Sequence record: MK047718.1
Source of the DNA: Escherichia phage p000y
Direction: 5' to 3' (one strand)
DNA: 64,000 nucleotides
In this document: positions 28,143 through 58,902 of the stretch, piece after piece
Layout of the letters: every line of letters begins with the position of its first letter
Numbering within the stretch: position 1 is the first letter of the stretch
Position numbers and translations under genes: made by a program
The notes under the pieces: model-generated
Told to the model about the DNA's origin: nothing
Database searches by the model: none
The model's input: only the letters and a program-made list of their open reading frames with translations

Positions 28143-30854
28143 ATGAAAGAATTTTACTTAACGGTTGAACAGATTGGTGATTCAATTTTTGAACGTTACA
28201 TCGATTCTAATGGCCGTGAACGTACTCGTGAAGTAGAATATAAACCATCACTGTTTGCTCATTGTCCAGAAAGTCAGGCTACGAAATATTTCGATATCTA
28301 CGGTAAGCCGTGTACTCGTAAGTTGTTCGCTAATATGCGTGATGCCTCCCAATGGATTAAACGCATGGAAGATATCGGACTTGAAGCACTTGGCATGGAC
28401 GATTTCAAATTGGCGTATTTGTCTGACACTTATAACTATGAAATCAAATACGACCATACAAAAATTCGTGTGGCTAACTTCGACATCGAAGTAACATCTC
28501 CGGACGGGTTCCCTGAGCCGGCACAAGCAAAGCATCCGATTGATGCTATCACCCATTATGACTCAATTGACGACAGGTTCTATGTATTTGATCTATTGAA
28601 TTCTCCATACGGCAATGTGGAAGAATGGTCTATCGAAATTGCGGCTAAGCTTCAAGAACAAGGTGGTGATGAAGTTCCATCCGAAATTATCGACAAAATT
28701 GTTTATATGCCGTTTGATAATGAAAAAGAATTATTGATGGAATATCTCAACTTCTGGCAACAGAAAACTCCTGTCATTTTGACTGGATGGAACGTTGAGT
28801 CATTTGATATTCCATATGTGTATAACCGAATCAAGAATATTTTTGGCGAATCTACTGCGAAACGTTTATCACCACATCGTAAAACTCGTGTTAAAGTTAT
28901 CGAAAACATGTATGGTTCTCGTGAAATCATTACATTGTTCGGTATCTCTGTTCTTGATTACATTGACCTTTACAAAAAGTTCTCTTTCACGAACCAACCG
29001 TCGTATTCTCTGGATTACATTTCAGAATTTGAATTGAACGTTGGTAAACTGAAATATGACGGCCCTATTTCTAAACTTCGTGAAAGCAATCACCAACGAT
29101 ATATTTCTTATAACATTATCGATGTGTATCGTGTATTGCAAATTGATGCTAAGCGTCAGTTCATCAACTTGAGTTTGGACATGGGTTATTATGCTAAAAT
29201 TCAGATTCAATCTGTGTTCAGTCCAATTAAAACATGGGATGCTATTATTTTTAATAGCCTTAAAGAGCAGAACAAGGTGATTCCACAAGGTCGTTCTCAC
29301 CCGGTTCAACCTTATCCTGGCGCTTTTGTTAAGGAACCTATTCCAAATCGATACAAATATGTAATGAGTTTCGACCTTACATCTCTGTATCCAAGTATTA
29401 TTCGCCAAGTGAATATTAGCCCTGAAACAATAGCAGGAACGTTTAAAGTAGCTCCACTGCATGATTATATTAACGCAATCGCTGAACGTCCTTCAGATGT
29501 GTACAGTTGCTCTCCTAACGGCATGATGTATTATAAAGACCGTGATGGTGTAGTTCCAACTGAAATCACTAAGGTCTTTAATCAACGTAAAGAACATAAA
29601 GGTTACATGCTTGCAGCTCAACGTAATGGTGAAATAATTAAAGAGGCATTGCATAATCCTAATCTTTCTGTTGACGAACCATTAGATGTTGATTATCGTT
29701 TTGACTTCACTGACGAGATTAAAGAAAAGATTAAAAAGTTGTCTGCTAAATCTCTTAATGAAATGTTGTTTAGAGCTCAACGTACTGAAGTTGCAGGTAT
29801 GACTGCACAAATTAACCGTAAATTGCTTATCAACTCACTTTATGGTGCACTTGGCAACGTTTGGTTCCGTTATTATGATTTGCGTAATGCTACTGCAATC
29901 ACAACATTTGGTCAAATGGCTTTACAGTGGATTGAACGTAAAGTTAATGAATATCTGAATGAAGTTTGTGGTACAGAAGGTGAAGCTTTCGTTCTTTATG
30001 GTGATACAGACTCTATTTACGTATCTGCTGATAAAATTATCGATAAGGTTGGTGAATCTAAATTCCGTGATACCAACCATTGGGTAGACTTCTTAGATAA
30101 GTTTGCTCGTGAACGTATGGAACCTGCTATTGATAGAGGTTTCCGTGAAATGTGTGAATACATGAACAATAAACAACACTTAATGTTCATGGACCGAGAA
30201 GCTATCGCTGGGCCTCCGCTTGGTTCTAAAGGTATTGGCGGATTTTGGACTGGTAAGAAACGTTATGCATTAAACGTGTGGGATATGGAAGGTACTCGTT
30301 ACGCTGAGCCTAAACTCAAAATCATGGGTCTCGAAACACAGAAATCTTCGACTCCTAAAGCAGTACAGAAAGCTCTTAAAGAATGTATTCGTCGTATGCT
30401 TCAAGAAGGTGAAGAATCATTACAAGAATATTTTAAAGAGTTTGAAAAAGAATTCCGTCAATTGAATTATATTAGCATCGCGTCGGTATCTTCTGCGAAT
30501 AACATTGCTAAATATGATGTAGGTGGATTCCCGGGTCCTAAATGCCCGTTCCATATTCGTGGAATTCTGACATATAACCGAGCTATCAAAGGTAATATTG
30601 ATGCACCACAAGTTGTAGAAGGTGAAAAAGTATATGTTCTGCCTTTACGTGAAGGAAACCCATTCGGTGATAAATGTATCGCATGGCCTTCTGGTACTGA
30701 AATCACAGATTTAATTAAAGACGATGTACTTCATTGGATGGACTACACTGTTCTCCTTGAGAAGACATTTATTAAACCACTTGAAGGATTCACATCAGCA
30801 GCTAAACTCGATTACGAGAAGAAAGCATCTCTGTTCGATATGTTTGATTTTTGA
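28143..30854 (+). CDS. 43: DNA polymerase gp43 (family B)
   Basis: 903 aa; exo motif FDIEV, pol motifs DLTSLYPSII, KLLINSLYG, YGDTDS; length and N-terminus read as RB69-type gp43. Confidence 0.95.
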   Translation: MKEFYLTVEQIGDSIFERYIDSNGRERTREVEYKPSLFAHCPESQATKYFDIYGKPCTRKLFANMRDASQWIKRMEDIGLEALGMDDFKLAYLSDTYNYEIKYDHTKIRVANFDIEVTSPDGFPEPAQAKHPIDAITHYDSIDDRFYVFDLLNSPYGNVEEWSIEIAAKLQEQGGDEVPSEIIDKIVYMPFDNEKELLMEYLNFWQQKTPVILTGWNVESFDIPYVYNRIKNIFGESTAKRLSPHRKTRVKVIENMYGSREIITLFGISVLDYIDLYKKFSFTNQPSYSLDYISEFELNVGKLKYDGPISKLRESNHQRYISYNIIDVYRVLQIDAKRQFINLSLDMGYYAKIQIQSVFSPIKTWDAIIFNSLKEQNKVIPQGRSHPVQPYPGAFVKEPIPNRYKYVMSFDLTSLYPSIIRQVNISPETIAGTFKVAPLHDYINAIAERPSDVYSCSPNGMMYYKDRDGVVPTEITKVFNQRKEHKGYMLAAQRNGEIIKEALHNPNLSVDEPLDVDYRFDFTDEIKEKIKKLSAKSLNEMLFRAQRTEVAGMTAQINRKLLINSLYGALGNVWFRYYDLRNATAITTFGQMALQWIERKVNEYLNEVCGTEGEAFVLYGDTDSIYVSADKIIDKVGESKFRDTNHWVDFLDKFARERMEPAIDRGFREMCEYMNNKQHLMFMDREAIAGPPLGSKGIGGFWTGKKRYALNVWDMEGTRYAEPKLKIMGLETQKSSTPKAVQKALKECIRRMLQEGEESLQEYFKEFEKEFRQLNYISIASVSSANNIAKYDVGGFPGPKCPFHIRGILTYNRAIKGNIDAPQVVEGEKVYVLPLREGNPFGDKCIAWPSGTEITDLIKDDVLHWMDYTVLLEKTFIKPLEGFTSAAKLDYEKKASLFDMFDF

Positions 30855-30894
30855 TATAATGCCAAGGACGGCCAACTAATTAAATGAGAGAAAT

Positions 30895-31530
30895 ATGAAA
30901 ACTACACCAATCACTATCGCTATTGACGCAATCGTAAAACAAGCTTCATCTCTTGCCACTATGGCTAAAGTAATTAGTCAAAACCCTGCTCGTTATAATG
31001 CTATTCTAGAAACTCTTCGACGCCCGGGACTTAGTAATTATGAAAGCCGAGTAATTATTACAGGTGTTGGTAAGAACGCTAATATCGCAACTAAAGCTTC
31101 CGAGACTTTTGCTTCACTCGGTATCCCAAGTATGTACTTGAACACTGGGCATTATTCTCATGGTGACGCAGGATTTATTGCACCTAATGATGTATTAGTT
31201 CACATCAGTCGTTCTGGTAAGACTGAAGAAATGATAGGTGTTGCTAAACATCTTCGTATGATTCGTCCTCAGGTTAAACAGATTCTGTTACATTGTAACC
31301 CTGACATTCCACAAGAATACGAAGCTCTTTTTGATTATACGTTCTGTACCGGTATCGCGGTAGAAGTTGACGAGAACTCTTTAGCTCCGACAATGTCTAC
31401 TACATTGTTGTTAGCGCTTATCGATACGTTCGCTATCAACCTTTCGTCTGAACGTGGATTTACCTCTAATGACTTCCTTAAGTTCCATCCAGGCGGTGCA
31501 CTAGGTGCCATGTTACGAGGCGAACAATGA
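30895..31530 (+). CDS. SIS-domain sugar-phosphate isomerase (KdsD/arabinose-5-phosphate isomerase-like)
   Basis: 211 aa; ITGVGKNANIATKASETFASLGIPS...HGDAG...HISRSGKTEE follows the KdsD/GutQ SIS pattern (GxGKS, ATFASxG, HGDxG, SxSGxTxE). Confidence 0.6.
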   Translation: MKTTPITIAIDAIVKQASSLATMAKVISQNPARYNAILETLRRPGLSNYESRVIITGVGKNANIATKASETFASLGIPSMYLNTGHYSHGDAGFIAPNDVLVHISRSGKTEEMIGVAKHLRMIRPQVKQILLHCNPDIPQEYEALFDYTFCTGIAVEVDENSLAPTMSTTLLLALIDTFAINLSSERGFTSNDFLKFHPGGALGAMLRGEQ

Positions 31531-31670
31531 AAGCAATAACAATAGGACTTTTACTATTGATGCTTGTCATGACTATCTACTGGAGCTTAACGGCTCCAGT
31601 AATGATTCCAACACTTGTAATTGGATGGATTATGATTGGACTACAAGCAAAGTATGAATGCTTTAACTAG
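31527..31670 (+). CDS. Small hydrophobic membrane peptide, 47 aa
   Basis: ATGA-coupled to the SIS gene; MKAITIGLLLLMLVMTIYWSLTAPVMIPTLVIGWIMIGL...; below the track cutoff. Confidence 0.4.
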   Translation: MKAITIGLLLLMLVMTIYWSLTAPVMIPTLVIGWIMIGLQAKYECFN

Positions 31671-31711
31671 AATAGTGTACAATACTCCTACTTACCAATG
31701 AGGACTTCAAC

Positions 31712-33397
31712 ATGAAAAAAGCTGTTATTCTTGGTGCTGGATTGGCAACTCGTTTATATCCAATAACGCATCATATTCCTAAGGTGCTTGTTAACTATAA
31801 ACAAGACACTATTCTGAGCAATTTGTATACAATTTATTCTGACCTTGGCGCAGATGAAATTATTGTAGTAGTTCATTCAAAATTTGCTGAAACTGTTCGA
31901 GCTTATTGTGAGCAAGAAGGGTTCAATGTGACTATTCGTACAGTTGATGAAGCATACGGTTCTGCTTATGCTCTTGCTAAATTACACAAAGATTTAGACG
32001 GCCATAACGTAATTGTTAACTGGTGTGATATTATTCCTGACTTTGGTTCATGGTCTTGGAATGTTAACGCAATCTATGTTAAGGGTGATGAATGTCGATA
32101 TAATTTCGATGGTGAAAATATCACTAACGTAGGTTCAACAGGTGGTAATGTTGTAGGAATTTATCAGTTCAAAGACTGGGAATTCTACATGGGTTCTACT
32201 GATGAGGAAATTCACGAATACTGCAAAGGTCGTGATTTCGTAGAATTCCTTTACGGCAGTGCATTCAATAAATCAGAGCTTATGAATCTAATTGATTTAG
32301 GTGATATGCCTAAACTTGAAAAGGCTCATGAAGTTCGTGAACTGAATCGTAGTTTTAATGCAGTTGAAATTGGCGAAGAAACTGTAACTAAATTCGCGTT
32401 AACCGAACAAGGTCGAGCTCTTCAAAAAGATGAGATTTCATGGTATTTGAAAGTGAAATCAGATTCAGTTCCTCAGTTAGTTTCGGTAAATGAAAATAAT
32501 TTTGAAATGGAACGTATTAAAGGTAAGCCGGCATTTGAATATATTAAATCCAAATCAAGTCTTGCTCGTCCACAAATTGTTGATGCAATTTTAGATGCAC
32601 TGAAATTCAGCACGGACACTTATTTTGTAAGTCCTGAAACTGTTCGCCGTGATTTCACTAAAGAGTTCTATACGAAAGTTATTGATCGTTGTGAAAGCAT
32701 TCAGCCATTGATTGATTCATTTGGTAAAATCACACACGTGAACTACACTAAAATTGGACGTCTGAAGCCAATGTTGAAACAAGCTTTAGAACATCTTATT
32801 CGTTATCATAACCGTTCTCAGGGACAGTACTCTGTTATTCATGGTGACCCGAACTTCAGTAATACTATGATTACCGATAACGGCGAAGTCAAGTTTATCG
32901 ACCCTCGTGGATATTTTGGTGAAACCAAGATTTACGGGCCAAAATTATATGATGAAGCTAAAGTGCTTTATGCTGTTTCAGGTTATGATGAATTCAATGC
33001 TAATCCGACCTGGGGACAGTTTACTATTGATGAAACAACTTGTAATGTGACTATTAACATCAATCCATTAGTTTACAAATATGGAAAGATGAGTTCGTTT
33101 AACGAGTATCATCATTTGGCTGTAGCAATTATCTGGATTGCATTAGGTGGTTATTTCAAGAATAATCCACTTAAAGCGGTTGCCGCATATTATAAAGGTA
33201 TGGAACTTCTGACTAAGCAATTACGTAACATGGGCCGTGTACTTCAAGACGGCTCTATTAGTTATGACGTAGCAGAACCTGTAACGGCTACTCTGATTAC
33301 AAAAAATCCTGGTAAATGGGTACTAACTGATAAAGAAACTGGTGTTTCCTATCGTCCAATCGGCGGCGATATCACTCATCAATGGGAACGAATCTAA
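31712..33397 (+). CDS. Bifunctional sugar-1-phosphate nucleotidyltransferase / APH-fold anomeric sugar kinase (MurU-AmgK-like fusion)
   Basis: 561 aa; N-terminal NTase motif AVILGAGLATRL; C-terminal kinase motifs HGDPNFSNTMI and FIDPRGYFG; RBS TGAGGA. Confidence 0.6.
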   Translation: MKKAVILGAGLATRLYPITHHIPKVLVNYKQDTILSNLYTIYSDLGADEIIVVVHSKFAETVRAYCEQEGFNVTIRTVDEAYGSAYALAKLHKDLDGHNVIVNWCDIIPDFGSWSWNVNAIYVKGDECRYNFDGENITNVGSTGGNVVGIYQFKDWEFYMGSTDEEIHEYCKGRDFVEFLYGSAFNKSELMNLIDLGDMPKLEKAHEVRELNRSFNAVEIGEETVTKFALTEQGRALQKDEISWYLKVKSDSVPQLVSVNENNFEMERIKGKPAFEYIKSKSSLARPQIVDAILDALKFSTDTYFVSPETVRRDFTKEFYTKVIDRCESIQPLIDSFGKITHVNYTKIGRLKPMLKQALEHLIRYHNRSQGQYSVIHGDPNFSNTMITDNGEVKFIDPRGYFGETKIYGPKLYDEAKVLYAVSGYDEFNANPTWGQFTIDETTCNVTININPLVYKYGKMSSFNEYHHLAVAIIWIALGGYFKNNPLKAVAAYYKGMELLTKQLRNMGRVLQDGSISYDVAEPVTATLITKNPGKWVLTDKETGVSYRPIGGDITHQWERI

Positions 33398-33783
33398 TGC
33401 ACCGTGTAGAAAACATGCTTAATCTTTGTTTTGATGTCGATGATTGTATAACAGAGTGGAATAACAATCGTGATTACGTGAACTTCAAACCAGACGTCGA
33501 AATGGTGTCTGCCATTAATGCCCTGTATGATGCAGGGCATACCATAACGCTTTACACTGCCCGTGGTATGAAGTCGGTAGGTCCTGGTCGTATAGCAATT
33601 GACATTCTCCCAAGTCTGATTCAGAACTTGGAAAACATTGGTTTGAAGTACCATAATTTGCTAACACATAAACCAGTATATGATTGGATTATCGACGACA
33701 AAGCTATGCGTCCTGACGAATTCAAAGCTCTTATGAATAAAGGCGAATTCGAAACATTTAAATCATATAAACCAAATCTATAA
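33397..33783 (+). CDS. HAD-superfamily phosphatase (KdsC-like), about 128 aa
   Basis: HAD motif I FDVDDCIT, motif II LYTARG, motif IV WIIDDKA; TAATG overlap with the upstream gene. Confidence 0.55.
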   Translation: MHRVENMLNLCFDVDDCITEWNNNRDYVNFKPDVEMVSAINALYDAGHTITLYTARGMKSVGPGRIAIDILPSLIQNLENIGLKYHNLLTHKPVYDWIIDDKAMRPDEFKALMNKGEFETFKSYKPNL

Positions 33784-33829
33784 TAATTTAAGTAAGACCT
33801 GCAAAAACCATCGCATCAATTAACGCGAG

Positions 33830-34999
33830 ATGCAAAAAATGAATACTTTTAAAATCGGAACGAATTTTGATTTAGCTCTTCTTGATAAAATCGTAGAGCT
33901 CAATAAAACCTATCCTAATAGCTTGATAAACGAAGTATATGGCTCTACAAGAGAAATGGCTTTTGTAGCAGCCAGACCTGATTTTAGGCTTCCTGACGTT
34001 GACAAAAAGATGTTAGAAGACTACGTTAAACGTTGTAACGAATTAGGTATTTGCTTTAACTATACACTCAACACGATAAATCCTGGTTCAAAAAGAGAAC
34101 TAGTTGAGTGGAAGAAGAAAGCTATTCAGGATTATGTTCAGTATCTTTGGTCAATAGGCGTATGGCGTATTACTATCGCTAACCCTGTTGTTATGGAAAT
34201 TGTTCGTGAAGTCAATAAAGATATTGAGATTGAAGTTTCAACAATTCTACATGTCGATGCGGTAACTCAAATCAAATACTTACATGACCAATATAACATC
34301 AAAAAGGTCTGTTGCGGAATTCATAAGAACCGTTCAGTTTCTTTCCTGAAGCGTGCAGCAGAGTTTTGCAATAAGAACAATATAATATTTGAAGTTCTTG
34401 TAAATGAGTTCTGTTCTAATGCTGGTAAAGGGTATACAACACATTGTAGTTATCGTGACTCTTGCTATATTTTCCATAGTACTGATGTTACCGCTGATGA
34501 TGCTAAATCCTTAAATGGATATCCTATGCAGCACTGTATTAAAGCTCGTGATACAGACCCATTTAACTGGTTGAGAACTCGTTTTGTTCGTCCTCAAGAT
34601 TTGAAACTTTATAATGATATTGGTATCACTCAATTCAAAGTTTCAGGACGTACAGGTAGCACAGACTACATTTTGAAAGTTCTTGAAGCATACGCTTCTG
34701 AAAAGTTTGAAGGTAATTTGTTAGAACTGTGGAAGCCTTTAGAGACTATTTTCACTCTTGAAAATGAGACTGAGTTTTCACATACAGTAAATATTGAAAC
34801 CTCTTTGTTAGATGGCTTTTTAGAAAAAAGGTGGTTCAGACATCCAGATTTTGATTGTGCTAATGAAATCTGTGGGTCAACGTGTACATATTGTGAAAGG
34901 TATTATAAACGTCAATTATCTAAAAACGGGTTAGCAGAAAACTCCATATCTATTATTGATATAACTAACTCTGATGACGCTTTGAGGTACCCGGAATGA
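33830..34999 (+). CDS. Cys-rich enzyme of unknown function, 389 aa (possibly peptidase-U32-like/Fe-S)
   Basis: Clustered cysteines (VCCGIH, FCSNAGKGYTTHCSYRDSCY, C-terminal CANEICGSTCTYC); family assignment is tentative. Confidence 0.35.
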   Translation: MQKMNTFKIGTNFDLALLDKIVELNKTYPNSLINEVYGSTREMAFVAARPDFRLPDVDKKMLEDYVKRCNELGICFNYTLNTINPGSKRELVEWKKKAIQDYVQYLWSIGVWRITIANPVVMEIVREVNKDIEIEVSTILHVDAVTQIKYLHDQYNIKKVCCGIHKNRSVSFLKRAAEFCNKNNIIFEVLVNEFCSNAGKGYTTHCSYRDSCYIFHSTDVTADDAKSLNGYPMQHCIKARDTDPFNWLRTRFVRPQDLKLYNDIGITQFKVSGRTGSTDYILKVLEAYASEKFEGNLLELWKPLETIFTLENETEFSHTVNIETSLLDGFLEKRWFRHPDFDCANEICGSTCTYCERYYKRQLSKNGLAENSISIIDITNSDDALRYPE

Positions 35000-35235
35000 T
35001 TTCTAGAAAAAGTTTTAATTATAAACTTAACGAAGAGATTTTGACTATGAAACTGAACACTAACGAACAAATTCTTAAAAAGGCCCTTATGGGCCTGTTT
35101 GAAACCAAAGCGGCTAAAGTGATTAAAGAACCTGTTCAATTGGAATACTACACTGATGCATTCCTTCATAGTGTTCTTGGAAGTATAGATTCTGAAGCTT
35201 TACGTTATATCAACATTGTCAAGAAATTCAAATAA
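34996..35235 (+). CDS. Hypothetical protein, 79 aa
   Basis: ATGA-coupled ORF. Confidence 0.35.
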   Translation: MISRKSFNYKLNEEILTMKLNTNEQILKKALMGLFETKAAKVIKEPVQLEYYTDAFLHSVLGSIDSEALRYINIVKKFK

Positions 35236-35258
35236 GCTTTACGAATTGAGTATATAAT
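35236..35258 (+). promoter_or_regulatory. Middle promoter (GCTTTA plus TATAAT) upstream of the hydroxymethylase gene
   Basis: GCTTTA 35236-35241, 11 nt, TATAAT 35253-35258; RBS GAGG before ATG 35278. Confidence 0.5.
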
Positions 35259-35277
35259 AAATTGTATTGAGGTAAAC

Positions 35278-35994
35278 ATGGGAAAACATAACACAATGAA
35301 ATATATCAAAGCCGCAGATTTTCAAACCGCATTTAAAGCAGTCAATCGTGAAATTTTAGAAAACCCGGAATTCGTAACTGATTCTCGTATTGGACGTTGT
35401 AATGAAATTGGGTCTATGACAGTAGTTGTTGACACTCCATCATCATTCAAAATGACCGACCCACGTATTAACCGCATCTCTTATGAATATGCCGAAGACT
35501 TCTGGAAGTTTATGATTTCTGGTGGTACCAACGCAGAAGAAGCGTTTAAGGCATATCCTAATGTCGCTAAATTTATTTCTAAACCAAAATCAGATGTTTT
35601 GCCGGCGAACTTCAACACTTTCTATGGTCCTCGCATTGCGGCCCAATTACCAACTCTTCTAAAAGAACTTAAAGAAAAACCTAACTCTCGAAGAGTTGTG
35701 TTCCAAATTCTAGAAAGTTCTGATCAGGCTTTGCTTGATTCGGACGAAACACTTGAATATCCATGTACTGACTCAGTAACTTATTATATTCGTGATGGTA
35801 AGCTTTATACCCACTGTCATATGCGTTCTCAGAACTGTGCTGTTGTTATGCAGTTGGATTTTTATCTCCAAGGAAAATTACTTCATTATATCGCTAACGA
35901 ATGCGGTGTAGAAGTTGGTGATTATACTCATACCATGGTAAGTGCCCATGTGTTTGAACGTGATTTTGATTATGTTAAAGGATTCCTTGACTAA
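35278..35994 (+). CDS. 42: Thymidylate-synthase-fold pyrimidine hydroxymethylase (gp42 dCMP hydroxymethylase-like, divergent)
   Basis: 238 aa; nucleophile-Cys context YPCTDSVTYYIRD and HMRSQN typical of the TS / dCMP-hydroxymethylase fold; same position as T4 gene 42. Confidence 0.6.
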   Translation: MGKHNTMKYIKAADFQTAFKAVNREILENPEFVTDSRIGRCNEIGSMTVVVDTPSSFKMTDPRINRISYEYAEDFWKFMISGGTNAEEAFKAYPNVAKFISKPKSDVLPANFNTFYGPRIAAQLPTLLKELKEKPNSRRVVFQILESSDQALLDSDETLEYPCTDSVTYYIRDGKLYTHCHMRSQNCAVVMQLDFYLQGKLLHYIANECGVEVGDYTHTMVSAHVFERDFDYVKGFLD

Positions 35995-36893
35995 TGGCTA
36001 TTTTCCGCGTACCAATCTTGAGTATGCGGTCTTATGAAACTGGACAGTATGCTATCCTTAAGGATGGCAACTTCCAACTTCATTTGCACCGTGCTAATCC
36101 GGGTGATGTGATTACATATCCACGTAATGCATCTGATATTAAAGAATGCGAACGTCTTTTCCCAGAATTTAAGTTTGTTCCATTATGGTATAAAGATAAC
36201 GCGTATAACACTCGTAAATATTTCTGGACTGAAAATGAATTTGTGGTTGATTCATTAATTGATTATTATGATTGTGATTTTCTAATCACAGATATCACTG
36301 GTTATGGCGGCGCTTTTGATGTGGAATTCAATTTCAATATCACTGCAGACCCTAATAAACCACGTTTTTATATTGATGAATTCTTAAAAACCGACATGTT
36401 GTCTGTTAATCGTTCACTTCAAACTACTGTGTTGAATGAACGTCAAAAAGAAGTGCTGGTTAACGCAGGTGCAGATGGTAATAAGATTATCGTAACGCAG
36501 AAAGTTATACGTCCTTCCATCATGCAGCGTCTTGTAGGTGATTTGGCTCCTATTCATCTAGATGGTATTTTTCATCCATTTCGAATTAGTGACCCATGTT
36601 ATCGTTTTGAACAAGTGGTTGAATGTGCAATTCAATTAGGTCAACCGCTTTATATAACCGATCCAAATAATAGCTTCGACAGAAATAAGTATCCTGAAGA
36701 AGCGCTGATTCGAATTTTTAAACCAACTAAAACTGAGTACTATCAAATTCTTAAAGGACGTCCGAAAATTCAATATTTCGAAAATCCTGAAGAAGTATTC
36801 CATCCAGGTCTTGGTGAGTTCATCTACTTTAATGCTTTAATTTCTTCGCCGTATAATATACCTAAATACGAAGATGTCGTAATCGAGGAATAA
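35994..36893 (+). CDS. Hypothetical protein, 299 aa, at the position of T4 beta-glucosyltransferase
   Basis: ATGA-coupled to the hydroxymethylase gene; no recognisable motif. Confidence 0.4.
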   Translation: MAIFRVPILSMRSYETGQYAILKDGNFQLHLHRANPGDVITYPRNASDIKECERLFPEFKFVPLWYKDNAYNTRKYFWTENEFVVDSLIDYYDCDFLITDITGYGGAFDVEFNFNITADPNKPRFYIDEFLKTDMLSVNRSLQTTVLNERQKEVLVNAGADGNKIIVTQKVIRPSIMQRLVGDLAPIHLDGIFHPFRISDPCYRFEQVVECAIQLGQPLYITDPNNSFDRNKYPEEALIRIFKPTKTEYYQILKGRPKIQYFENPEEVFHPGLGEFIYFNALISSPYNIPKYEDVVIEE

Positions 36894-36894
36894 A

Positions 36895-37443
36895 ATGGCT
36901 AAAATTATTTTAGTAGATGGCCCGGATAATGCTGGTAAAACAACTTTCATTAATGACATAATGGAAATTAGTGAAAGATATGTAAAGATTGATTTCCCTA
37001 AACGAACAGTTGATGGACGTTTCGATGTTAAGTCTCGAAATGAAGTTGGCTGTTTCGAAACGATGTTGAATTATTTAGACCCTACTAAGATTTATCTGTT
37101 AGACCGTGGATATATTAGTAACTGGGTTTATGGACGTATTCGACAAGATGCGGACTCGATTCTTGACGTTTATGAACAGGACTATGTTCGTCTTTGCCAA
37201 AACCATGATGTGTTCACAATTATTTTAACACGTAACGAAATGACTGAAAGTTTTGAAGACGACCTTATTACTTTGTCTTCATTCGGTTTTAATACAGTCA
37301 TTTCACATTTTGAAGAGTTTGCAATTCATAACAAAATCCAAACGTATCAATTACTTAATCATGATGGTGCTAACAAAGTTATAGGATTTAATGCAAGCGA
37401 ACGTAATTATTTGATTACAGAAATTATCAAATGGGCTCGTTAA
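36895..37443 (+). CDS. P-loop nucleoside/nucleotide kinase-like protein, 182 aa
   Basis: Walker A ILVDGPDNAGKTT, then LLDRGYISNWVYG resembling the dNK/TMPK fold. Confidence 0.5.
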   Translation: MAKIILVDGPDNAGKTTFINDIMEISERYVKIDFPKRTVDGRFDVKSRNEVGCFETMLNYLDPTKIYLLDRGYISNWVYGRIRQDADSILDVYEQDYVRLCQNHDVFTIILTRNEMTESFEDDLITLSSFGFNTVISHFEEFAIHNKIQTYQLLNHDGANKVIGFNASERNYLITEIIKWAR

Positions 37444-37541
37444 GAGCCATTTAAAGTTTTAAATGCTGTATAACCCTTAGTATATAATCATCTTATCTTT
37501 TAAACATGAGTAAAATATAATGATGCCTATGGAAAAATACA

Positions 37542-38714
37542 ATGTCTGATTTAAAATCTCGTCTGATTAAAGCTTCTACTTCTAAAATGACTGCAGACTT
37601 GACTAAGTCTAAGCTGTTTAATAATCGTGATGAAGTCCCTACTCGTATTCCGATGTTGAATATTGCATTAGGTGGTGCACTGAATGCCGGGTTGCAATCA
37701 GGCTTAACTATTTTTGCTGCTCCTTCTAAACACTTTAAAACGTTGTTTGGGCTGACCATGGTTGCAGCATATATGAAGAAATATAAAGATGCAATCTGTT
37801 TGTTTTATGACTCAGAATTCGGTGCTTCAGAATCTTATTTTCGTTCAATGGGTGTTGATTTAGACCGTGTAGTTCATACTCCGATTCAATCTGTCGAACA
37901 ACTTAAAGTTGATATGACTAATCAGCTTGACGCGATTGAACGCGGTGATAAAGTTATTATCTTTATCGATTCAATCGGTAATACTGCATCTAAGAAAGAA
38001 ACCGAAGATGCGTTGAACGAGAAAGTTGTAGGTGATATGTCTCGTGCTAAGGCACTTAAATCTCTGTTTCGCATTGTGACCCCGTATCTGACTATTAAAG
38101 ATATTCCGTGTGTTGCAATTAACCATACCGCAATGGAAATCGGCGGACTATATCCTAAAGAGATTATGGGTGGTGGTACAGGTATTCTTTACTCTGCTAA
38201 CACTGTATTCTTTATCTCTAAACGTCAGGTTAAAGAAGGTACAGAATTGACCGGTTATGACTTCACGTTGAAAGCAGAAAAATCTCGTACAGTTAAAGAG
38301 AAATCTACTTTCCCAATCACAGTTAATTTTGATGGTGGTATCGACCCATTCAGTGGCTTGTTAGAAATGGCAACTGAAATTGGTTTTGTAGTTAAGCCTA
38401 AAGCCGGGTGGTATGCTCGTGAATTCCTTGACGAAGAAACAGGTGAAATGATTCGTGAAGAGAAATCATGGCGTGCTAAAGCTACTGATTGTGTAGAATT
38501 CTGGGGACCGTTGTTTAAACACAAACCTTTCCGTGACGCAATTGAAACTAAATATAAACTAGGTGCTATCTCTTCTATTAAAGAAGTTGATGACGCTGTT
38601 AATGACCTTATTAATTGCAAAGCAACAACTAAAGTTCCGGTTAAAACTTCTGATGCTCCGTCTGCAGCAGATATAGAAAACGACCTTGATGAAATGGAAG
38701 ATTTCGATGAATAA
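37542..38714 (+). CDS. uvsX: Recombinase UvsX (RecA-like)
   Basis: 390 aa; ...MLNIALGGALNAGLQSGLTIFAAPSKHFKT... RecA-fold Walker A; reads as T4 UvsX. Confidence 0.92.
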   Translation: MSDLKSRLIKASTSKMTADLTKSKLFNNRDEVPTRIPMLNIALGGALNAGLQSGLTIFAAPSKHFKTLFGLTMVAAYMKKYKDAICLFYDSEFGASESYFRSMGVDLDRVVHTPIQSVEQLKVDMTNQLDAIERGDKVIIFIDSIGNTASKKETEDALNEKVVGDMSRAKALKSLFRIVTPYLTIKDIPCVAINHTAMEIGGLYPKEIMGGGTGILYSANTVFFISKRQVKEGTELTGYDFTLKAEKSRTVKEKSTFPITVNFDGGIDPFSGLLEMATEIGFVVKPKAGWYAREFLDEETGEMIREEKSWRAKATDCVEFWGPLFKHKPFRDAIETKYKLGAISSIKEVDDAVNDLINCKATTKVPVKTSDAPSAADIENDLDEMEDFDE

Positions 38715-57801: not shown

Positions 57802-58902
57802 ATGAAAGTTATGTTTATCCCATCTCGCGCAGTCCCATTTAACCCAGAACGTGTACAAGGTGGTCTTGAAGCAGTACATTTAAATGTGTTGAAATATTTA
57901 GTTTCTATCTGTGCTGATATTGATTATATCGGTTTTGATAATGACACATTTGGTGATTGGAAGGTTAATCATCATCCTGTTGGTCATCTGACAAAATTCA
58001 GTCTAGGTATGAGTTATACTATGGCTCGTAAGATTGTTGAACTAGCCGGCATCCATGAATACGATTTCGTTGTTACTATGGAACCGACTAAACTAACCGT
58101 TCAGGCAATTAAAGACGCAGGCCTCTCTAAAGTTCATAAGAATTTTATGGCAACACCATTTGAACCGGTATCTCGTGGCATTGTTCAAATTTGGGACCAG
58201 ACTATTCAAATTCATAAGAATGGTGGTAAGAGTTATGCTCCTACTAAAGCCTTCCGTGAATTTGAACGCAAATATTGTTATATGACTTCAGGTCTGACTG
58301 ACAAAATTGATTATGATTATTGGCGAGCAAATCCGTTGTTTGAAGCCGAAGATTATCCGGTTATTTGTTTGAATGAGAAACCTGAAGTTCTTCCGGCGAC
58401 GGATCTGATTATTAGTGCACAACGTTATGACACTAAAATGCGTCGTACTGATGTTGCTCTTGAAGCGATTAAAGCACTAGGCGAAAATGGTGCAGGATAC
58501 TGTCCTAGTAAATGGGCACCACCAGCTAAATATCCTGTTATTATTGATGCTCCACACAGTGAAATCATGGAACGCCTTAAAACAGCTAAAGCACTTATTA
58601 ATACGTGTCCTGACACAGGTACGGTAGAGAATAGTTCTATTGAAGCCATCTCTAAAGGTGTCCCTGTAATCCAGTTAGTTTTTAAGGATTATCCTCATGC
58701 GACATTTGAATACGACCCAGATACTGTGCGTGTAGAAATTGATTCCTCTACTCCTAAGAAAGAAGTAGTTGCGCTTTACACAAAAGCTGTATTAGAATTC
58801 ACTGACACATACGAAGCTCGAGTTAAACGTGCTGAAGCAGTATGGAAGAAGTATAACCGAGATGCAGTTGTTGCGATGTGGGATAAAATCTTCACAGCGT
58901 AA
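57802..58902 (+). CDS. GT-B fold glycosyltransferase (GT4-like), 366 aa; candidate DNA sugar transferase
   Basis: N-terminal MKVMFIP...GGLEAVHLNVLKYL and C-terminal TGTVENSSIEAISKGVPVI resemble GT4 donor-binding motifs; RBS AAGG. Confidence 0.55.
   Translation: MKVMFIPSRAVPFNPERVQGGLEAVHLNVLKYLVSICADIDYIGFDNDTFGDWKVNHHPVGHLTKFSLGMSYTMARKIVELAGIHEYDFVVTMEPTKLTVQAIKDAGLSKVHKNFMATPFEPVSRGIVQIWDQTIQIHKNGGKSYAPTKAFREFERKYCYMTSGLTDKIDYDYWRANPLFEAEDYPVICLNEKPEVLPATDLIISAQRYDTKMRRTDVALEAIKALGENGAGYCPSKWAPPAKYPVIIDAPHSEIMERLKTAKALINTCPDTGTVENSSIEAISKGVPVIQLVFKDYPHATFEYDPDTVRVEIDSSTPKKEVVALYTKAVLEFTDTYEARVKRAEAVWKKYNRDAVVAMWDKIFTA

Follow-up and report, generated by a model that had tools for sequence, protein, structure and literature searches.

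A nucleotidyltransferase–kinase fusion of Escherichia phage p000y as the probable Mosigvirus enzyme for UDP-D-arabinofuranose

The stretch of DNA considered here, 64,000 nucleotides from Escherichia phage p000y (MK047718.1) and referred to below as the window, carries behind its DNA polymerase gene a single open reading frame (ORF) in which a sugar-1-phosphate nucleotidyltransferase domain is fused to a kinase domain of the APH/choline-kinase type. The frame opens with ATG, preceded 8 nt upstream by a GAGGA Shine-Dalgarno sequence, and encodes 561 residues, its end coordinate in the ORF listing taking in the stop codon. That stop, TAA, overlaps the ATG of the following gene, which encodes a small HAD-type phosphatase, in the pentanucleotide TAATG (33395–33399), an overlap that is likewise annotated in the record of phage p000v; the two genes are therefore taken to be translationally coupled. 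An initial annotation of this DNA had described the protein as one polypeptide with an N-terminal nucleotidyltransferase and a C-terminal anomeric kinase, encoded by a phage. The two-domain architecture is borne out by the motifs quoted at the time, by Pfam and profile searches and by conserved residues, and the protein is indeed encoded by a phage. In 363 phage records the fusion is carried with a coverage of 80% or more. Because these records, as well as the cluster representatives described below, carry it, the fusion is not an assembly artefact; the match to PHROG 4098 spans the full protein (E 4e-295).

In the N-terminal half, Pfam NTP_transferase is matched over residues 3–99 (E 8.5e-10; score 39 bits, cut-off 21), and the domain contains the G-x-G-x(3)-R-L ... 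P-K signature together with the metal- and sugar-binding aspartates. The motif AVILGAGLATRL occupies residues 4–15. In a 46-sequence alignment of fusion homologues, which spans down to 28% identity, the nucleotidyltransferase catalytic residues G10, R14, K24, D106, D195 and D198 are invariant. Many NCBIfam sugar-1-phosphate nucleotidyltransferase models match the fusion, all of them below threshold. LicC and RmlA-type enzymes outscore MurU as matches to this domain, and its best sequence match in the PDB is LicC (E 2e-5), confined to residues 3–96.

Taken as a single sequence, the kinase half falls under the Pfam cut-offs (15 bits for APH, against 23), and Pfam APH is matched by 10 of 16 family members (best E 1.9e-10). 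A profile of the domain matches APH(2'') structures (E 6e-6), and in that search K227, H377–D379 and D397 align with the catalytic lysine, the HxD loop and the Mg-binding aspartate of APH(2''). The motifs HGDPNFSN and FIDPRGYFG lie at residues 377–384 and 395–403. Across the same 46 sequences K227, E241, G378, D379, N384 and D397 are invariant and H377 nearly so (at least 90%), as are, invariantly, the basic residues R213, R326, R399, K417 and K488. The C-terminal half therefore combines, as found by alignment and by structure comparison, a catalytic Lys, a Glu, an HGDxxxxN loop and a Mg-binding Asp with an APH/eukaryotic-like-kinase fold. An AlphaFold model of the fusion built from the alignment has a pLDDT of 94 and a pTM of 0.90, values that are identical for the kinase half alone, and a Foldseek search with the kinase model returns APH(2'')-IIa (E 1.5e-7). 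Sequence searches of the PDB gave no solved structure for the RB69 gp52:53/AfhE family, to which we assign the protein below, the LicC and APH(2'') matches just cited being the best. Both domain assignments stand well clear of chance. Since both folds are recognised and the catalytic residues are kept in 46 homologues, both halves look catalytically competent. The C-terminal tail of about 55 residues (GRVLQDGS...HQWERI) is shared by Straboviridae and by metagenomic sequences of ~37% identity or more, which are the closer relatives, whereas more distant members lack it; the model gives it a few short strands at a pLDDT of 77–88.

The source of the window is a T4-like phage of the genus Mosigvirus (RB69-like). 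Over 6.7 kb around the fusion ORF, the DNA matches that of Escherichia phage p000v (Mosigvirus) at 98.9% identity, and this interval is covered to at least 80% by 151 phage records. Residues 1–218 of the fusion are 99.5% identical to RB69 ORF053c and residues 219–561 are 99.7% identical to ORF052c; the GenBank record of RB69 has one extra base at the ORF053c/ORF052c junction, which splits the gene, and the copy in the window is intact. Upon re-sequencing this junction, the extra base in RB69 was found to be a sequencing error, such that ORF53_52c is one gene of 561 residues, and it was expressed as a single 63.9-kDa protein (Thomas et al., 2018). These workers proposed a part for ORF53_52c in making UDP-arabinose, in concert with the homologue of arabinose-5-phosphate isomerase encoded next to it. 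Further afield, the fusion protein is 57% identical to gp82 of the Acinetobacter phage DLP3 and 54% identical to TH1_060 of the Shewanella phage Thanatos. In the Thanatos study, TH1_060 was essential for propagation and, when given xylose-1-phosphate together with each of five NTPs, was inactive. A transposon-mutagenesis preprint on the related phage Bas46 gives no gene-level essentiality for the arabinose genes.

By sequence orthology with the RB69, DLP3 and Thanatos proteins, then, the fusion is a member of the RB69 gp52:53/AfhE family. RB69 gp52:53, DLP3 gp82 and AfhE of phage HY126 have the same two-domain architecture of 561 residues, and the same place between an arabinose-5-phosphate isomerase and a HAD phosphatase, downstream of the DNA polymerase. 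There is no substantive difference from the RB69 gp52:53 type; HY126 AfhE is likened by description, not by sequence.

The chemistry served by this family is known from work on its close relatives. Lee et al. (NAR 2026, PMC13326640) find that RB69 DNA bears β-D-arabinofuranosyl-(1-3)-α-D-arabinofuranose (Araf) ether-linked to 5-hydroxy-2'-deoxycytidine, a linkage to 5-hydroxycytosine that corrects the former hydroxymethylcytosine assignment. The donor for the DLP3 transferases is UDP-Araf and not the pyranose form, UDP-Arap, and RB69 gp52:53 is treated there as the counterpart of HY126 AfhE. The same article summarises He et al. (Nat Chem Biol 2026), according to whom AfhE is both a D-arabinose-5-phosphate kinase acting at C1 and a UDP-arabinose pyrophosphorylase, while the HAD protein AfhF is a Mg-dependent phosphatase that strips the 5-phosphate from the 1,5-bisphosphate. 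The DNA of NicPhage, a close Mosigvirus that is 98.0% identical to the window over the cluster, contains 5-ara-dC and 5-ara-ara-dC.

Taken together, these results make it highly probable that the fusion is the Mosigvirus copy of a bifunctional UDP-D-arabinofuranose enzyme, feeding the arabinosylation of 5-hydroxycytosine in phage DNA. To the reading frame, the two folds, the intact catalytic residues, the near-identity to RB69 gp52:53, the neighbourhood and the conservation in genomes, all of which are observed here, the literature on the orthologues adds the two activities, the order of kinase, phosphatase and nucleotidyltransferase, the use of UTP and the DNA product. In the pathway so assembled, the phage SIS isomerase would turn host ribulose-5-phosphate into D-arabinose-5-phosphate, which the C-terminal APH-fold kinase domain would phosphorylate at O1 with ATP, giving D-arabinofuranose-1,5-bisphosphate. 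The translationally coupled HAD phosphatase would then take off the 5-phosphate, and the N-terminal nucleotidyltransferase domain would join the resultant D-Araf-1-phosphate to UTP, such that the fusion covers two of the four steps to UDP-D-Araf. The two arabinosyltransferases would finally, one after the other, put arabinose on 5-hydroxy-dC, the precursor of which would come from the thymidylate-synthase homologue. This is a de novo route leading out of the pentose-phosphate pathway, not a salvage route. A phosphate at position 5 of arabinose blocks closure to the pyranose and forces the furanose, while free arabinose is mostly pyranose. Retention of the 5-phosphate until C1 has been phosphorylated would thus lock the sugar in the furanose ring found in DNA, because pyranose closure is prevented while C1 is being phosphorylated.

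The initial annotation had also held that the phage secures its own supply of nucleoside-diphosphate (NDP) sugar, a role that agrees with Lee et al. (PMC13326640), and had guessed at arabinose as the sugar, which matches the published RB69-type pathway. Its further claim, that the NDP-sugar is built directly from a free sugar, is not supported: AfhE acts on arabinose-5-phosphate, as relayed by Lee et al., and the gene lies between an isomerase upstream and a HAD phosphatase downstream, with a linkage to SIS genes that runs through the whole family.

Several points weigh against assigning the fusion this role. The activities of the window protein are predicted, the assays being those reported for HY126 AfhE, and both these and the order of substrates reach us through the summary of He et al. 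in Lee et al. (PMC13326640). Moreover, that source is at variance with itself: its Table 1 has the HAD protein as one that 'dephosphorylates Araf5p to Ara' and the kinase as one that 'phosphorylates Ara to Araf1p', whereas its text, after He et al., runs from arabinose-5-phosphate through Ara-1,5-bisphosphate to Ara-1-phosphate. The specificity for UTP is likewise taken from the orthologues, as it is not a property that sequence can reveal, and may be regarded as probable by analogy. Finally, Dhakavirus JS10 (L003) has the fusion, the HAD gene, the thymidylate-synthase homologue, a glycosyltransferase and a kinase, and neither a SIS nor a U32 gene within the ~5-kb flanks examined. JS10 presumably draws its arabinose-5-phosphate from the host KdsD/GutQ, and the isomerase would therefore be dispensable where the host supplies this compound.

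The genes of the cluster are collected in Table 1. The surrounding gene order is gp46, gp45, gp44, gp62, regA and gp43 DNA polymerase, an insert of eight genes (nine if an ORF of 47 residues is counted), then uvsX and gp41. Relative to their RB69 counterparts the insert genes are 89–100% identical, all but one ORF of 79 residues at 97% or more. An isomerase, a small HAD phosphatase, a 5-hydroxy-dCMP synthase and arabinosyltransferases thus accompany the fusion, in an order that is the same in DLP3.

Table 1. Coordinates of the fusion gene, its parts and the associated genes, numbered from the first nucleotide of the window
Feature	Coordinates	Strand	Basis and remarks
Arabinose-5-phosphate isomerase (SIS, KdsD/GutQ-like)	30895..31530	+	96.7% identical to RB69p055; PHROG 5670
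Bifunctional fusion gene (orthologue of RB69 gp52:53 = ORF53_52c, DLP3 gp82, HY126 AfhE)	31712..33397	+	561 aa; PHROG 4098
Sugar-1-phosphate nucleotidyltransferase domain (~aa 1-205)	31712..32326	+	predicted: D-Araf-1-P + UTP -> UDP-D-Araf + PPi
APH/choline-kinase-fold kinase domain (~aa 208-505)	32333..33226	+	predicted: D-arabinose-5-P + ATP -> D-Araf-1,5-bisphosphate
C-terminal tail, ~55 aa (aa 506-561)	33227..33394	+	alignment and model
Small HAD-type phosphatase, 128 aa (counterpart of RB69 gp51, DLP3 gp81, HY126 AfhF)	33397..33783	+	98.4% identical to RB69p051
U32-family protein, 389 aa, Cys-rich C-terminus	33830..34999	+	Pfam Peptidase_U32 E 7e-11; 99.2% identical to RB69p050
Thymidylate-synthase homologue = 5-hydroxy-dCMP synthase	35278..35994	+	Pfam Thymidylat_synt E 2e-15; 98.7% identical to RB69p048
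Putative first DNA arabinosyltransferase, 299 aa (RB69 gp46:47)	35994..36893	+	97-100% identical to RB69p047 and RB69p046; PHROG 3891
Thymidylate-kinase-like nucleotide kinase, 182 aa (RB69 gp45)	36895..37443	+	PHROG 761 E 4e-45; 98.4% identical to RB69p045
Putative second arabinosyltransferase, 366 aa (RB69 gp3 = ORF003c)	57802..58902	+	363/366 residues identical to RB69p003

The isomerase matches Pfam SIS (E 8e-10) and, in NCBIfam, KpsF/GutQ (E 9e-32) and KdsD (E 4e-30). The HAD protein matches the NCBIfam capsule biosynthesis phosphatase model TIGR01689 (E 2e-13), and by analogy with AfhF we infer that it removes the 5-phosphate from Araf-1,5-bisphosphate. The RB69p048-type thymidylate-synthase homologue has been shown by experiment to make 5-hydroxy-dCMP, and RB69 gp45 is listed as a nucleotide kinase, both by Lee et al. 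(PMC13326640). The arabinosyltransferase role of RB69 gp46:47 is proposed in the same article, and that of RB69 gp3 both there and by Thomas et al. (2018). The window copy of the gp3 gene lies apart from the insert, between the topoisomerase and rIIA genes. A scan for sigma-70 promoters and terminators over 30700–37600 returned fewer sites than did shuffled sequence.

The question of whether the kinase acts on a free or a phosphorylated sugar can be approached through the fusion family at large. At E <= 1e-30 the fusion profile is matched by 557 representatives of 50%-identity clusters; the best 150 of these all align, the great majority across both halves and a few as kinase-only or truncated forms, and judged from these alignments the two-domain fusion is the norm for its family. 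At 44 of 62 viral loci, and at 41 of 80 loci in the genomes of fusion-bearing bacterial or archaeal species, the fusion has a SIS gene no more than 6 kb away, which very often abuts it. In some members the association is covalent: single polypeptides of 888–955 residues (P0084, P0088, P0089, P0091, P0092 and P0109) begin with HAD and then SIS domains and continue with the nucleotidyltransferase and, last, the APH-like kinase. The gene for P0084 (L006 8001–10781) belongs to a 103-kb contig and has as neighbours a MutS+HNH gene, RNA polymerase Rpb2 and RNA_pol_N, a gene content that is typical of giant viruses; P0091 was found in transcriptome data of the slime mould Ceratiomyxa fruticulosa. Other family members, of ~790 residues, end in a cupin resembling mannose-6-phosphate isomerase.

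The phosphatase, too, tends to travel with the fusion. A three-gene cassette of SIS, fusion and a HAD-like protein of ~125–130 residues is found in a Thermoplasmata metagenome-assembled genome and in the completely sequenced Trichodesmium erythraeum IMS101 (L101 5413–7879; L139 4798–7856); the archaeal copy is surrounded by glycosyltransferase genes of the GT4 and GT2 families. The small third proteins of both cassettes carry the HAD motif IDIDGVI and are 46% identical to each other. A BLASTP comparison of the phage HAD protein with the small HAD-like proteins 3' of the archaeal and cyanobacterial fusions gave no significant similarity, and the conservation of the trio therefore rests on position, size and the HAD motif, not on orthology of the phosphatases. 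Where other phages have the HAD gene, Tenacibaculum phage PTm1 encodes a histidine phosphatase (His_Phos_1, E 9e-23; L004 6571–7275), which indicates that the phosphatase step has been retained by non-orthologous replacement. Such lasting coupling or fusion with isomerases and a phosphatase fits an order of isomerase, kinase, phosphatase and nucleotidyltransferase.

It is against this background that other readings of the fusion should be set. The one closest to the initial annotation would have free D-arabinose, obtained by scavenging or through dephosphorylation of arabinose-5-phosphate by the HAD protein, phosphorylated at C1 and then nucleotidylated in the manner of AmgK and MurU. The two folds are indeed those of AmgK/MurU-type pairs and of kinases for free substrates (choline, aminoglycoside, glucosamine and malto-kinases), the steps are labelled in this order in Table 1 of Lee et al. 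(PMC13326640), and a gene set of isomerase, phosphatase, kinase and nucleotidyltransferase suits either order of steps. On the other hand, the text of the same article credits He et al. with showing an arabinose-5-phosphate kinase (AfhE) and a bisphosphate phosphatase (AfhF). The protein does not qualify for the MurU or AmgK family, and the tight and widespread coupling or fusion of the kinase to sugar-phosphate isomerases points to a phosphorylated substrate. The ring form argues in the same direction, as free arabinose is mostly pyranose, whereas the sugar in DNA and in its donor is the furanose that a 5-phosphate enforces. A free-sugar order is accordingly judged unlikely.

Two further possibilities can be considered. 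The LicC match, and the choline-kinase kinship of the other half, could be read as LicC/LicA-type activation of a phospho-alcohol, for example by phosphorylation of choline or ethanolamine and formation of the CDP derivative, with no sugar involved. Yet identity is only ~20% to LicC and 10–15% to choline kinases, DNA glycosyltransferases are encoded in the cluster together with an arabinose-5-phosphate isomerase, arabinose and nothing choline-like is found in the DNA of near-identical phages, and SIS linkage extends throughout the fusion family; we regard this role as very improbable. Still harder to credit is that the fusion is itself the DNA glycosyltransferase, as was proposed for TH1_060 in the Thanatos study, where loss of the gene blocked phage growth; CDD, too, calls the N-terminal domain 'glycosyltransferase family A'. 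That domain, however, has the nucleotidyltransferase signature and matches pyrophosphorylases rather than GT-A transferases, TH1_060 showed no transfer to DNA, dCMP, dCTP or cytosine in the Thanatos study, and the cluster encodes separate GT-B-like transferases. The bifunctional UDP-D-Araf enzyme acting on arabinose-5-phosphate remains the reading adopted in what follows.

The nearest parallel to such an enzyme is found in the ADP-heptose pathway (GmhA, HldE, GmhB). There, a SIS isomerase provides a sugar phosphate, a kinase converts it to the bisphosphate, a HAD phosphatase strips the distal phosphate and a nucleotidyltransferase forms the NDP-sugar. The logic is the same, down to the placing of kinase and nucleotidyltransferase on one polypeptide, but the folds are unrelated. 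HldE has a ribokinase/PfkB-like kinase at its N-terminus and a cytidylyltransferase-like transferase. Unlike HldE, the window fusion has an RmlA/LicC-type transferase at the N-terminus and an APH-like kinase, and it would handle a pentose in place of a heptose and UTP in place of ATP. Neither PfkB nor CTP_transf_like is matched in the fusion by Pfam or NCBIfam. The fusion thus works most like HldE, built from LicC- and APH-type parts, and is not an HldE member. A Foldseek match of DLP3 gp81, the HAD counterpart, to GmhB-type heptose-bisphosphate phosphatase is given by Lee et al. (PMC13326640).

Other known systems resemble the fusion less fully. The likeness to AmgK and MurU stands at the level of fold and falls at the level of family, where LicC and RmlA score higher. 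Against the NCBIfam MurU model NF045761 the fusion scores 24.8 bits where 250 are required, and among structural matches MurU does not come first; the equivalog cut-off of NF045697 is also missed (19.9 bits against 370). As for AmgK, no NCBIfam kinase model matches the C-terminal domain at E <= 0.01, and the gene is fused and lies in a DNA-modification cluster. AmgK, an anomeric kinase for MurNAc and GlcNAc, and MurU, a MurNAc-1-P uridylyltransferase, are two separate proteins with free amino-sugar substrates and a role in cell-wall salvage. LicC, a phosphocholine cytidylyltransferase, together with the choline kinase LicA uses choline and CTP, as opposed to pentose phosphate and UTP here, at identities of 11–20% and in an unrelated genomic context; LicC is the best structural match, yet at 20% identity, and with a context of arabinose and DNA modification, the fusion is not assigned to LicC/LicA. 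FKP and AFKP80 of Leishmania, which join a fucokinase or arabinokinase to a GDP-sugar pyrophosphorylase, are single polypeptides that lead from a sugar through its 1-phosphate to the NDP-sugar, GDP-D-arabinopyranose in the case of AFKP80, with a GHMP-fold kinase and a free pyranose sugar as substrate. Pfam and structure searches gave no GHMP similarity in the fusion, the folds of FKP/AFKP80 being different.

UDP-D-arabinofuranose is not known to be a product of E. coli, and the phage must therefore bring the whole pathway. What it gains is arabinosyl-5-hydroxycytosine, which shields phage DNA from restriction enzymes and CRISPR nucleases. The fusion itself is already known: RB69 ORF53_52c was proposed as a UDP-arabinose gene in 2018, and the pathway and the DNA chemistry were worked out in 2025–2026. 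Since this has been published for the exact protein family, the result for the window is an annotation and not a discovery. Its practical value lies in the correction of database labels and in placing on record arabinose-5-phosphate, not free arabinose, as the substrate. Public records label the fusion 'hypothetical protein' or 'bifunctional protein GlmU', the HAD phosphatase 'phosphoheptose isomerase', the U32 protein 'peptidase' and the 5-hydroxy-dCMP synthase 'deoxycytidylate 5-hydroxymethyltransferase'.

A broader idea, which we put forward tentatively and consider rather less probable than its opposite, is that the phage enzyme is a captured copy of a wider cellular module of SIS, fusion and small HAD, making a UDP-pentofuranose, possibly UDP-D-Araf, for glycans. 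Beyond the full trio in Thermoplasmata and Trichodesmium, SIS stands beside the fusion in Micrarchaeota and Methanobrevibacter among the archaea and in Prochlorococcus among the cyanobacteria, and many bacteria from gut and freshwater have the fusion gene as well. The giant-virus-like contig and the slime-mould transcriptome bring all four activities onto one polypeptide of ~900–950 residues. If the idea is true, nucleotide-activated D-arabinofuranose would be far commoner than the mycobacterial decaprenyl-phosphate route suggests.

Two neighbours of the fusion stand somewhat apart from this pathway. Whether the U32 protein is part of the arabinose system is uncertain. Its RB69 twin is listed only as 'sugar or heterocycle reductase' by Lee et al. 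(PMC13326640). A U32 homologue adjoins the fusion at 15 of the 62 viral loci, those identified being enterobacterial phages, and is absent from five Acinetobacter and one Pseudomonas phage loci as well as from E. coli Dhakavirus phages. The Acinetobacter and Pseudomonas hosts of these U32-less loci are strict aerobes. The U32 proteins RlhA, TrhP and UbiU/V carry out oxygen-independent C5 hydroxylation, and the 5-hydroxy-dCMP synthase of the phage needs O2. Because other U32 proteins hydroxylate without oxygen and the synthase requires it, the U32 protein might, by analogy, be an anaerobic back-up hydroxylase.

The other neighbour is the very hydrophobic ORF of 47 residues (MKAITIGLLLLMLVMTIYWSL...; 31527–31670, +), which lies between the isomerase and fusion genes and overlaps the isomerase stop codon. 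Its protein is 100% identical to the RB69 region of RB69p054 ('similar to T4 42-imm intercistronic region') and 52% identical to the JS10 copy, and it probably represents a small membrane protein that has no part in the pathway.

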